This document shows, one piece after another, positions 38,401-41,400 of a DNA stretch of 64,000 nucleotides. Numbering within the stretch: position 1 is the first letter of the stretch; every line of letters begins with the position of its first letter. Made by a program: the position numbers. The DNA comes from Escherichia coli (GTDB lineage: Bacteria; Pseudomonadota; Gammaproteobacteria; Enterobacterales; Enterobacteriaceae), in the NCBI RefSeq assembly GCF_050320075.1, contig NZ_CP190018.1. One strand, 5' to 3'.

Positions 38401-41400
38401 AGTGGGTTATCAGAAATCCCCATCAATGCGTCGCTGATCATATAAGGAATATCAGCATTGGTCATTGCCCAGGACATGCCCACGGAAAAACCGATCAACA
38501 GTAATACAATCGAAGTGGTAACAACCGATTCCAGAATCAGTTTGGGTAAATCGCGCCATTTTACTTCCCGGTAAATCAGCACCGAGAGAATAAATGTGTA
38601 GACAACGGCAATTGCTGACGCTTCAGTTGCGGTAAAAATGCCGCCCAGAATGCCGCCCATTACAATGAACACCAGAAGCAAACTTGGTAAGGCATCCAGA
38701 AACGCTTTACATGCCTGAGCAAAGGTTGCTCTTTCTGAAAGTGGGTAGCCACGGCGTTTAGCAATAATGCCGCAGACTATCATTACCGCAAGACCCATTA
38801 AGATCCCTGGCAAATATCCCGCCATAAATAACGATGCTACAGAAACGCCACCAGCTGTCAGGGAAAACACAATTAACACGTTTGAGGGCGGTATCAGTAA
38901 TCCAGTAATACAGGATGAGACGTTTACAGCGGTAGAAAATGCCGGATCATAACCTTCTTTGGTCTGAATGGGATTCAGTGTGCCACCAACGGCAGCAGCT
39001 GCCGCAACGGCTGAACCAGAAATGGAACCAAACATCATATTCGCCAGGACGTTCACATGACCAAGCGAACCAGGAACGCGGCCAACCATTACCTGGGCGA
39101 GGTTAATCAAACGTATCGCAATACCGCCGCTGTTCATCAGCGTTCCGGCAAAGATGAAAAAGGGGATTGCCAACAGGGCAAAGTTATCCAGTCCATTAGC
39201 CAGTCGTTGCGAAACAGTGATTGCCGCGATATCCCAGGGAAACATCAAAAGCATTGAAGCTACAGTGGCAATACCGATTGAGAACGAAATGGGCACACCA
39301 ATAAAGACCAGCACAAAAAAACAGCCAAACAGTGTAATCGCGATATAACTATCCATTAACTGGCCTCCTGCGCAGGTTGTTTCAGTTGTTGAATGCTTTG
39401 ATTAATAAAACACAAGGCATAAAACATCATCACCAATCCACTTAATGGCAGAATGATATATACGTATCCCATCGGTATTTGCATCGCGGCAGATACCTGT
39501 GATGTTGCCAGTGTTTTATCAATTAATTTCAGGCCACCAGTCACAATGACCGAACCGGCAAAACCTAAAATAAGAACGTTAATGACTATACTAAGAAGTA
39601 ATTGCTTGCGCTTATTCAGGGCGAGAGCAAATAAATCGATAGAGAGATGTCTCTGCGCGCCGACGGTATATGCAGCACCTAATAATCCTACCCAGATCAT
39701 CAAAAAGCGTGCCAGCTCATCGGTTAATGTACTTGGCTGGTTAAGTACGTAGCGGCTAAATACTTGCCAGACTACGCATACAACCAGAGCAAGCATTACG
39801 GCGACAGAAAACGCGGCAATGACGCGGTCTACCGCAAGTTTCAGGCGGTTAAATATCATTGTAAGCATCCTGGAAAATCAGGGCCAGAGACTGGCCCGAA
39901 ATATTATTGAGCAGCGTTGTCGAATTTCTCTAACAAAGCAGCTTGTTTTGGATCTTTTTTGAAGTCGTCAAACAGAGGTTGAACTGCGGCACGGAATGGG
40001 GCTTTATCAACCTTAACGATTTCACCACCCATAGCTTTCGCCTGAGCACGTGTGTCAGCGTCAATTTTTTCCCACAATTTTTGTTGATAAGCTTCGGATT
40101 TCTTCGCCGCTGTTTCGAGGATTTGTTGCTGTTCTGGGGTTAATTTATTCCATGTTTTGGTGGAGATAACCAAAAAGTCAGGAATTGAGGCATGTTCATC
40201 TTCAGAAAAGACTTTGGCAATTTCGATATGTCGAGTCTGCACCCAGGAAGGCACGTTATTTTCTGCGCCATCTACTACACCTTGCTGCATCGCAGTATAA
40301 ACTTCGCCAAATGAAATTGGAGTGGGTGAGCCACCCATCAGTTCAATCATTTTGATGGTGGTCGGGCTTGGCTGAACACGAATTTTCAGCCCTTTAAGAT
40401 CTTCTGGCTTAGTAATCGGTTTTTTCGCATAGAAACTGCGTGTACCCGCTACATAAGCTGATAAAGCAAAAAAGCCTTTATCTTTTGTTGAATCCATAAT
40501 TTCTTTACCAACTTCACCAAAAACCACTTTGTTGAAGTGCGCCTGATCTTTAAATAAGAACGGCAAATTATAGATAGCATAAATATTATCAAAAGACTCC
40601 AGATCACTGGCGGAACCTTTGGTCATATCCAGTGCACCATTTTGCAACAACTCCATAGTTTCTCGCGCATTACCCATCTGGCTGCTGGGGTAAATACGGA
40701 TCACCATATTACCTTTTGACAGCTGTTTTACTTCTTTCGCCAGCTCTTCAAAACTCTGATGTACAACATGACTTCTTTCCAGGTTGTGTGCTAACTTTAA
40801 CGTCACTTTTTCTGCGGCGTTTACGCCAGTGCTAACCAGAGCCAGCAAGGATGCGCAGACTAATGAGCGGGTAAATGACCTCATTTTCATAAAAAAACTC
40901 CCTGTTGAAGAATGGAAATTGGTTGATATCTAATTGTGCTTATCAGTGCTTTGTGCGACAAATTGGTTAACCTGTCTGACAACTTGTCTATGTTTATCAC
41001 AACTTGAAATAAAGTCAGAAATTAAATATTAATTTTGTGCGCCAGGTTGTACATGTTTATAATCAATAAATGATGAGTAAATATTCACTAAATATATATA
41101 ATAAATATCGTCGATATTTATTCAGTAAGAAATATATTTTTTCCGAAGTTAATTAACGGGGGGTTATGAGAAGTGATTAATGCGCCCGCAGGCGCATTAA
41201 TGATTACTCAGCGAGGAATAATTCAAGAAGTGAGTTTAAGAATAATTTACCATGCTCGGTTATCTGCCAGTAATCCGCACATTCTGTGAGATAACCTTGA
41301 GCGATAGCCTCGTCTAACTGAGAGCGAATAACTTCTTCAGAAAGGCCAGTATATTGGCTAAACTCCACGCGCGGCGCGGCCTCAAGCAGACGGAAGCGAT

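Follow-up and report, generated by a model that had tools for sequence, protein, structure and literature searches.

What is the perfect palindrome that directly follows hemW in some strains of Escherichia coli: a site in the DNA, or a structure in the RNA? We addressed this question in a stretch of 64 000 nucleotides (contig NZ_CP190018.1; hereafter the window). A preliminary description of this DNA had pointed to a perfect 11 bp inverted repeat just past hemW that is not followed by a U-tract on the hemW strand, and had favoured a protein-binding palindrome or a scar at the edge of a TRAP insertion over an intrinsic terminator. Searches of the literature for yggW/hemW/yggM together with TRAP found no relevant paper.

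The hemW coding sequence occupies nucleotides 41204–42340 on the minus strand, with its stop codon at 41204–41206, and closes the co-directional five-gene block yggS-yggT-yggU-rdgB-hemW. Over 1.7 kb the window matches E. coli YZLc1-3 at 100% identity, and hemW is annotated in the identical genome. Beyond hemW lie a 313-nucleotide AT-rich spacer, the genes dctP (39904–40890), dctQ (39356–39868) and dctM (38055–39356) on the same (minus) strand and then the convergent gene yggM. The palindrome (41176–41201) reads ATTAATGCGCC-cgca-GGCGCATTAAT on the plus strand, with the left arm at 41176–41186, the loop at 41187–41190 and the right arm at 41191–41201. Its arms are complementary at 11 of 11 positions. 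With the hemW stop codon at 41204–41206, the gap between stop and palindrome is two bases (41202–41203), so that the third base past the stop is the first of the repeat, as originally described. In the hemW-sense RNA the region reads UAA-UC-AUUAAUGCGCC-UGCG-GGCGCAUUAAU-CACUUCUCAUAACCCCCCG, which would form a stem–loop (41176–41201, minus strand) at the probable 3' end of the yggS-yggT-yggU-rdgB-hemW transcript, with a perfect 11 bp stem, including five G–C pairs, and a 4-nucleotide loop.

The palindrome is not a chance feature. The window has a single copy of its exact sequence, for which shuffling gives an expectation of 0.00. Perfect inverted repeats with arms of at least 11 bp and loops of 3–8 nucleotides number four in the window, whereas 40 dinucleotide shuffles have 0.1 on average, and repeats of this length are about 40 times as frequent in the window as in shuffled sequence; the remaining three are shufflon sites that are unrelated to the palindrome. 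The folding energy of the RNA hairpin is −16.6 kcal/mol, and its 141-nucleotide context has a z score of −3.4 relative to shuffles. An Rfam scan of 40700–41400 (E values up to 10) returned noise, the best matches having E values of 0.06 or more and lying far under the gathering score.

A stable GC-rich stem–loop at the end of a transcription unit is what an intrinsic terminator calls for, and this part of the architecture is present. The 7–8-nucleotide U-tract that is required directly 3' of the stem is not: on the hemW-sense strand the stem is followed by CACUUCUCAUAACCCCCCG, and the tail is CACUUCUC when it is counted from the 11 bp stem and AUUAAUCA when it is counted from the GC core alone. 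A terminator scan of the window does not flag the hairpin. The d-type terminator score, calculated after d'Aubenton-Carafa (1990) and Lesnik (2001) with modern energy parameters, is −26 or lower in every register, and the T-score is 0.5–1.3. The lack of a U-tract noted in the preliminary description is thus borne out by both the scan and the score. A role on the plus strand, such as an antisense or small RNA that ends at the hairpin, was considered and rejected, as that strand lacks a U-tail too, the lone promoter-like match on the plus strand is at chance level and the wobble variants described below would become A·C mismatches there.

The same position was compared in other enterobacteria, using HemW as a query and one genome per species, which gave 80 Enterobacterales loci. 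A strong hairpin lies within about 20 nucleotides of the hemW stop codon in nearly all 80 species, with unrelated sequences: REP elements in E. coli, E. albertii and Citrobacter, and classic A/U-flanked terminators in Serratia and Pseudocitrobacter. The TRAP operon follows hemW at only one of the 80 loci (that of a metagenome-assembled genome, MAG locus L025). The presence of a strong hairpin in nearly all of these species therefore ties it to the end of the hemW operon and not to TRAP. The E. coli palindrome itself has closer relatives. A 7 bp core, ATGCGCC-N4-GGCGCAT (41180–41197, minus strand), is common to the hemW-proximal hairpins of TRAP-carrying Salmonella and of Leclercia, and the ATTAAT arms outside it vary from genus to genus. 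In Leclercia the sequence past the stop codon is UAA-UGCCUG-AUGCGCC-UCCG-GGCGCAU-UUUUAUAU, and in TRAP-carrying Salmonella it is UAA-ACACG-AAUGCGCC-UGCG-GGCGCAUU-UCUUUUGCG. In 1.07 Mb of Enterobacterales loci, the motif ATGCGC-N(3–12)-GCGCAT was found only at this intergenic position and in two intragenic chance matches. Kluyvera, Klebsiella, Scandinavium, Phytobacter and the MAG L025 each have a different hairpin at the spot of the palindrome.

In both Leclercia and Salmonella the core is followed by a U-tract (UUUUUAUAU or UUUCUUUUG), which is the layout of an intrinsic terminator, and the U-rich tails are TTTTTATAT in Leclercia and TTTCTTTTG in TRAP-carrying Salmonella. The scan flags the Leclercia copy on the hemW strand; the Salmonella copy is flagged on the antisense strand only, since on the sense strand the tail window is displaced by G·U pairing that lengthens the stem. 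The d-type scores are +18.5 for Leclercia and +8.7 for Salmonella and the T-scores of the orthologues are 3.3–3.8, compared with the negative d-type score and the low T-score in E. coli. The E. coli hairpin is in this way orthologous to canonical terminators, through the copy flagged on the sense strand in Leclercia and through the UUUCUUUUG tail in Salmonella. Leclercia and Salmonella each have one pair that is a G·U wobble and that forms in the hemW-sense RNA only. Among the four distinct orthologous sequences the 7 bp core is invariant and every change is wobble-compatible on the sense strand. A covariation test on these four sequences, with their invariant 7 bp core, gave no significance (236 of 500 shuffles reach the observed score), the number of sequences being too small for the test to have power.

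From what is observed, namely the anatomy, the homology, the strand-specific wobbles and, as described below, a sequence conserved within E. coli and set apart from the control elements of dctP, the palindrome is very probably a hemW-sense RNA hairpin that derives from an intrinsic terminator. A rival reading of its present activity is that the hairpin still acts as a weak, non-canonical Rho-independent terminator, partial and Rho-free and possibly aided by NusA or NusG. Here the GC core GCGCC-UGCG-GGCGC would form while the AU-rich AUUAAU sits in the RNA–DNA hybrid. In many bidirectional terminators complementary A- and U-tracts extend the stem. The homology to the U-tailed terminators of Leclercia and Salmonella and the six nucleotides past the GC core, all of which are A or U, agree with such an activity; only three of the eight nucleotides past the GC core are U, however, the full 11 bp stem places CACUUCUC at the tail position, and the scan and the d-type score (at best −26) are negative. 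We regard weak intrinsic termination alone as unlikely, although it is an alternative to be kept in mind.

Variation within E. coli bears on whether the hairpin is still of use. In an alignment of 13 representative E. coli sequences, the lone change within the palindrome is G to A at 41192 on the plus strand (C to U in the hemW-sense RNA), which turns a C–G pair into a U·G wobble on the minus strand. Word-exact searches found the perfect stem in 973 genomes and the variant in 505; in a further 19 near-matches the flank differs (GAAGTG to GACGTG, the SE15 type) and the stem is unchanged. The variant hairpin has a folding energy of −13.9 kcal/mol, compared with −16.6 kcal/mol for the perfect stem. 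It pairs solely in the hemW-sense RNA; the other strand, or a symmetrical site in the DNA, would have a mismatch there. Between the window and SE15, which represent the most divergent TRAP-carrying types of E. coli, the palindrome has no differences in 26 positions, whereas the adjacent spacer has 29 in 137 (21%); the zero divergence of the palindrome could in part reflect a recombination boundary, because the adjoining end of hemW is also little diverged (3.9%). The dctP-proximal part of the spacer differs by 6% between the window and the B2/SE15 type. At least one strain has an IS1 element in the left arm of the palindrome.

The hairpin might alternatively be a functionless relic, that is, a decayed terminator that was kept by chance or was perfected by template-switch repair of a near-palindrome. 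Intramolecular template switching is a known mutational mechanism at near-palindromes, and a single such event could account for the three extra pairs of the E. coli stem; the loss of the U-tract would also suit a relic. The absence of any change in the palindrome next to a spacer with 21% divergence, and the fact that the sole allele found among about 1478 genomes preserves pairing in the RNA, speak against decay, and we consider a relic improbable.

The hairpin read as an operon-end RNA structure has next to be set against the history of the TRAP segment. Homology to K-12 ends exactly at the hemW stop codon (41204) and restarts at the yggM stop codon (37999), which defines the variable segment of TRAP-carrying E. 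coli as 38000–41203, with the palindrome as its last element. The K-12 counterpart is 154 bp long, with three REP elements between hemW and yggM. The TRAP arrangement is found in 1474 of 5426 complete E. coli genomes and the palindrome region in 1484; within the species the palindrome is confined to the approximately 1480 genomes with dctPQM between hemW and yggM. The last 100–200 nucleotides of hemW diverge by 15–20% between the window and the K-12 haplotype, the last 30 or so codons of HemW specify the same amino acids in both haplotypes and four differences lie further up. The TRAP-less type is common to E. coli and E. albertii. On this divergence and on the sharing of the TRAP-less type with E. 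albertii, the two types are old haplotypes of the sequence and not the outcome of a recent insertion. A mobile element as the origin of 38000–41203 was ruled out, since its flanks have no integrase, transposase or target duplication; direct repeats and a tRNA gene are likewise lacking there.

Homologues that are 85–91% identical to DctP are known from Salmonella, Kluyvera, Klebsiella variicola, Leclercia, Scandinavium and Phytobacter, among other genera; for HemW the identity is 88–92%. The order hemW-dctPQM is also found in Salmonella, Kluyvera, Klebsiella, Leclercia, Scandinavium and Phytobacter and is syntenic in at least seven genera overall, so that 'TRAP insertion' is a less apt term for it than a presence/absence polymorphism of long standing. 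A different locus holds the TRAP operon in Buttiauxella, Pluralibacter and one Citrobacter freundii. In one TRAP-less Salmonella (locus L111), hemW is followed by a REP element and then by TTAATGCGCC-gccggcaa-GCGCATTA, which abuts the yggM stop codon, and TRAP-carrying Salmonella keeps CGCATTAA alone on the yggM side. The yggM-side hairpin of L111 may be an orthologue of the hemW-side hairpin or a second copy.

These comparisons bear on what had been proposed for the palindrome. Its placement at the edge of TRAP holds, in that it is the last element of the variable segment and, within E. coli, is tied to the TRAP haplotype. In the comparison of hemW 3' flanks with and without TRAP that had been suggested, the E. 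coli palindrome itself occurs only with TRAP, K-12 having REP elements in its place, and hairpins of one kind or another stand at the hemW end regardless of TRAP. The preliminary description had also stated that its reading would be contradicted by the same palindrome in island-free genomes with documented terminator activity; a related hairpin does exist in the TRAP-less Salmonella, and for none of these hairpins is activity documented.

A scar or recombination site of TRAP insertion or excision, in which, for example, a bidirectional hemW–yggM terminator was the target or the palindrome served as a breakpoint, would be consistent with the terminal position of the palindrome in the variable segment, with the related hairpin at the yggM stop codon of TRAP-less Salmonella and its remnant in the TRAP-carrying form, and with the entry of IS1 into the left arm. 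Against it stand the flanks devoid of mobile-element signatures, the occurrence of the same core after the hemW stop codon in Leclercia and Salmonella, the presence of hairpins at the hemW end with or without TRAP and the lack of a matching half-site at the yggM-side junction of E. coli. The seven-genus synteny, with DctP identities comparable to those of HemW, suggests that the arrangement is old and vertically inherited, with losses. A scar of this kind is most doubtful; the related hairpin in L111 leaves a small probability for some link between the hairpin and a breakpoint of TRAP gain or loss.

The hairpin is also distinct from the control region of the operon that follows it. The regulatory region of dctPQM (40891–41048, minus strand) lies apart from the hairpin and contains blocks that are conserved across genera, including AACCTGGCGCACAAA (the reverse complement of 41034–41048), TGTCAGACA (40973–40981) and TGTCGCACA (40952–40960); 5' of dctP, every genus has AACCTGGCGCACAAA, TGTCnGACA and TGTCATACA, together with a TGTGA element that resembles a CRP site. 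All lie within about 160 nucleotides of the dctP start and 130–250 nucleotides from the hairpin, and the palindrome is 286–311 nucleotides upstream of the dctP start. The blocks are kept where the TRAP operon occupies other loci (Buttiauxella L102, Pluralibacter L105 and C. freundii L104). The hairpin, unlike the blocks, does not move with the operon, being either missing or supplanted by hairpins of unrelated sequence, so that the co-conservation with the regulated promoter that is expected of an operator is not observed. No regulator gene is present inside the variable segment. That a dimeric protein binds the duplex palindrome, as an operator or upstream site of dctPQM or the hemW operon, is accordingly the least credible reading and is very improbable, despite the perfect 11 + 11 bp dyad symmetry, the location in the hemW–dctP intergenic region and the retention of the core in three genera, given the distance from dctP, the persistence of the dctP blocks at loci without the hairpin, the unrelated hairpins at the same spot in Kluyvera, Klebsiella, Scandinavium, Phytobacter and the MAG, the U-tailed orthologues, outer arms that vary between genera around a loop and spacing typical of an RNA tetraloop hairpin, and a common E. 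coli variant that breaks the symmetry of the DNA and keeps the pairing of one RNA strand.

Between the hairpin and these blocks lies a stretch of untranslated sequence. The first 80 nucleotides 3' of the hairpin (41096–41175, minus strand) form a candidate rut region, with 20% C and 7% G and a C/G ratio at the 99.6th percentile of all 80-nucleotide windows of the stretch analysed; this C-over-G skew stems mostly from the poverty of G in an AT-rich spacer, the absolute content of C being modest. The first 40 nucleotides have 30% C and 7% G, although C falls to the 20% given above over 80 nucleotides and the region is mostly A/T. The skewed part includes a homopolymer of six G on the plus strand (41160–41165; C6 in the hemW-sense RNA of the minus strand), the length of which ranges from 6 to 14 among TRAP-carrying E. 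coli and which is missing in the B2/SE15 type.

The RNA hairpin at the end of the hemW operon can be placed in a simple scheme. Its ancestor would have been a Rho-independent terminator, the U-rich tail of which Leclercia still has, as does Salmonella in a less clean form. On the way to E. coli, the tail would have become AUUAAUCACUUCUC and the 5' flank complementary to it, giving the perfect 11 bp stem without a U-tract. At present the hairpin probably defines and protects the 3' end of the transcript, together with Rho-dependent termination, weak intrinsic termination or both. Most likely, RNA polymerase reads past the hairpin or terminates there weakly, Rho would load on the untranslated C-rich, G-poor RNA just past it and termination would be diffuse within the 313-nucleotide spacer. 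Trimming by 3' exonucleases would then stop at the hairpin, which would define and protect the end of the hemW mRNA and insulate the dctPQM promoter. In TRAP-less E. coli the REP elements in the same position would take the same part.

The comparative value of the locus is modest and lies in a stem–loop for which sister genera offer both a form with a U-tract and one that lacks it, and in the REP elements that occupy the same slot in TRAP-less E. coli. These three forms could be used to test how intrinsic terminators become Rho-dependent 3' ends protected by a hairpin. The TRAP-carrying and TRAP-less haplotypes, with their 15–20% divergence at the 3' end of hemW, which is silent at the C-terminus, and their occurrence across species, are a neat case of a long-standing presence/absence polymorphism. 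A more far-reaching reading of the sequences, which we put forward only tentatively, is that the locus might be a population-scale natural case of a change of terminator class, from the U-tailed form of Leclercia and Salmonella to the U-less form of E. coli, in which a template switch at a near-palindrome shifted termination to Rho with exonucleolytic trimming, within old trans-species TRAP haplotypes for which related hairpins perhaps mark the breakpoints of gain and loss.

Among known systems, operators of dimeric factors share with the palindrome its perfect dyad symmetry and its intergenic location; the lack of co-conservation with dctP, the strand-asymmetric and RNA-compatible variation and the U-tailed orthologues set it apart from them. 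REP elements, which stabilise mRNA and attenuate transcription (work cited in Dar & Sorek, 2018; PMC6061677), occupy the same hemW–yggM spacer slot in K-12-type E. coli, E. albertii and Citrobacter. Unlike REP elements or BIMEs, the palindrome is single-copy (one in 64 kb) and has no REP consensus, and the REP elements of K-12 differ from it in sequence. Intrinsic terminators likewise have a GC-rich stem with a tetraloop right after the last gene of an operon, and the homologues in Leclercia and Salmonella carry the U-tail of this class; the E. coli copy differs in having no U-tract and in failing both the scan and the d-type score. A further match is the class described by Dar & Sorek (2018; PMC6061677), in which Rho-terminated transcripts have their steady-state 3' ends at stable stem–loops without a U-tract; rut sites follow shortly after the stem, to which PNPase and RNase II trim the RNA back. 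The same authors predicted that terminators can switch class through changes in uridine content or loss of uridines. The palindrome resembles these protective stem–loops in its stability, in the lack of uridines after the stem, in its position at a gene end and, less clearly given the modest content of C, in the C-over-G skew of the untranslated RNA downstream; the published set comes from K-12, in which this hairpin does not occur. The palindrome is an ordinary operon-end stem–loop of a known kind and, being the structure expected at such a position, should be annotated neither as an operator nor as a scar of integration.

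The 3′ end of hemW (window 41204–41400, with hemW on the minus strand) was compared with the corresponding parts of six loci (L001, L012, L015, L084, L095 and L111, the last two being Salmonella with and without the TRAP transporter operon dctPQM, respectively). Between E. coli that carry dctPQM between hemW and yggM (TRAP+) and those that lack it there (TRAP−), this end of the gene is 15–21% diverged, which is near between-genus levels, and the differences in the last ∼30 codons are silent. The TRAP− type of hemW end is common to E. coli and E. albertii, and the hemW ends of TRAP+ and TRAP− Salmonella are 87% identical. 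On these sequence comparisons, the presence or absence of the TRAP operon looks like an old polymorphism that crosses species boundaries.

In the TRAP-less Salmonella locus a related hairpin, perhaps an orthologue or a second copy of the hemW-side one, abuts the yggM stop codon (TTAATGCGCC-gccggcaa-GCGCATTA; L111 4204–4235), whereas in the TRAP+ Salmonella locus only CGCATTAA is left beside this stop (L095 6470–6500). In the TRAP+ haplotype of the window, the convergent yggM and dctM stops are separated by a canonical, bidirectional terminator-like hairpin, GCCGGATAA-tataaaaag-TTATCCGGC (38000–38060), which is flanked by A/T-rich sequence.

The first palindrome, a perfect 11 bp inverted repeat just past the hemW stop (41176–41201), is followed 11–16 nt downstream by a G6 homopolymer (41160–41165; C6 in the hemW-sense RNA). 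The homopolymer ranges from 6 to 14 G across TRAP+ E. coli, and slippage or sequencing error could lie behind some of these length differences; the divergent B2/SE15 type of TRAP+ E. coli has GGGCATTTAT in its place. Another palindrome, composed of A and T alone (AATAAATATCG-t-CGATATTTATT, 41100–41122), is located 54 nt from the first; most TRAP+ E. coli conserve it, but SE15 does not. Exact matches to the first palindrome with its flank include one (of 973) on a record typed as plasmid rather than chromosome. In strain CUVET20-PYO4 an IS1 element lies inside the left arm of this palindrome (L014 1440–1533) and the 5′ part of dctP is deleted with the insertion; three further strains carry IS1 between hemW and dctP.

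Upstream of dctP, blocks within window 40891–41048 are conserved in at least eight genera. They include 41034–41048 (reverse complement AACCTGGCGCACAAA), 40973–40981 (TGTCAGACA), 40952–40960 (TGTCGCACA) and a CRP-like TGTGA element, and are probably the promoter and operator set of this uncharacterized TRAP system; near dctPQM there is no gene for a regulator of this system.

Elsewhere, window 8700–10600 is devoid of long ORFs and contains three perfect inverted repeats (8966–8999, 9720–9753 and 10275–10322) of sequence ACCGGATTGGCAC-ggaggcca-GTGCCAATCCGGT. The stretch is similar to shufflon segments of IncI plasmids (pilV, shufflon protein C), with matches that are mostly plasmid-borne, and this resemblance points to a shufflon located on the chromosome, with recombination sites of the sfx type.
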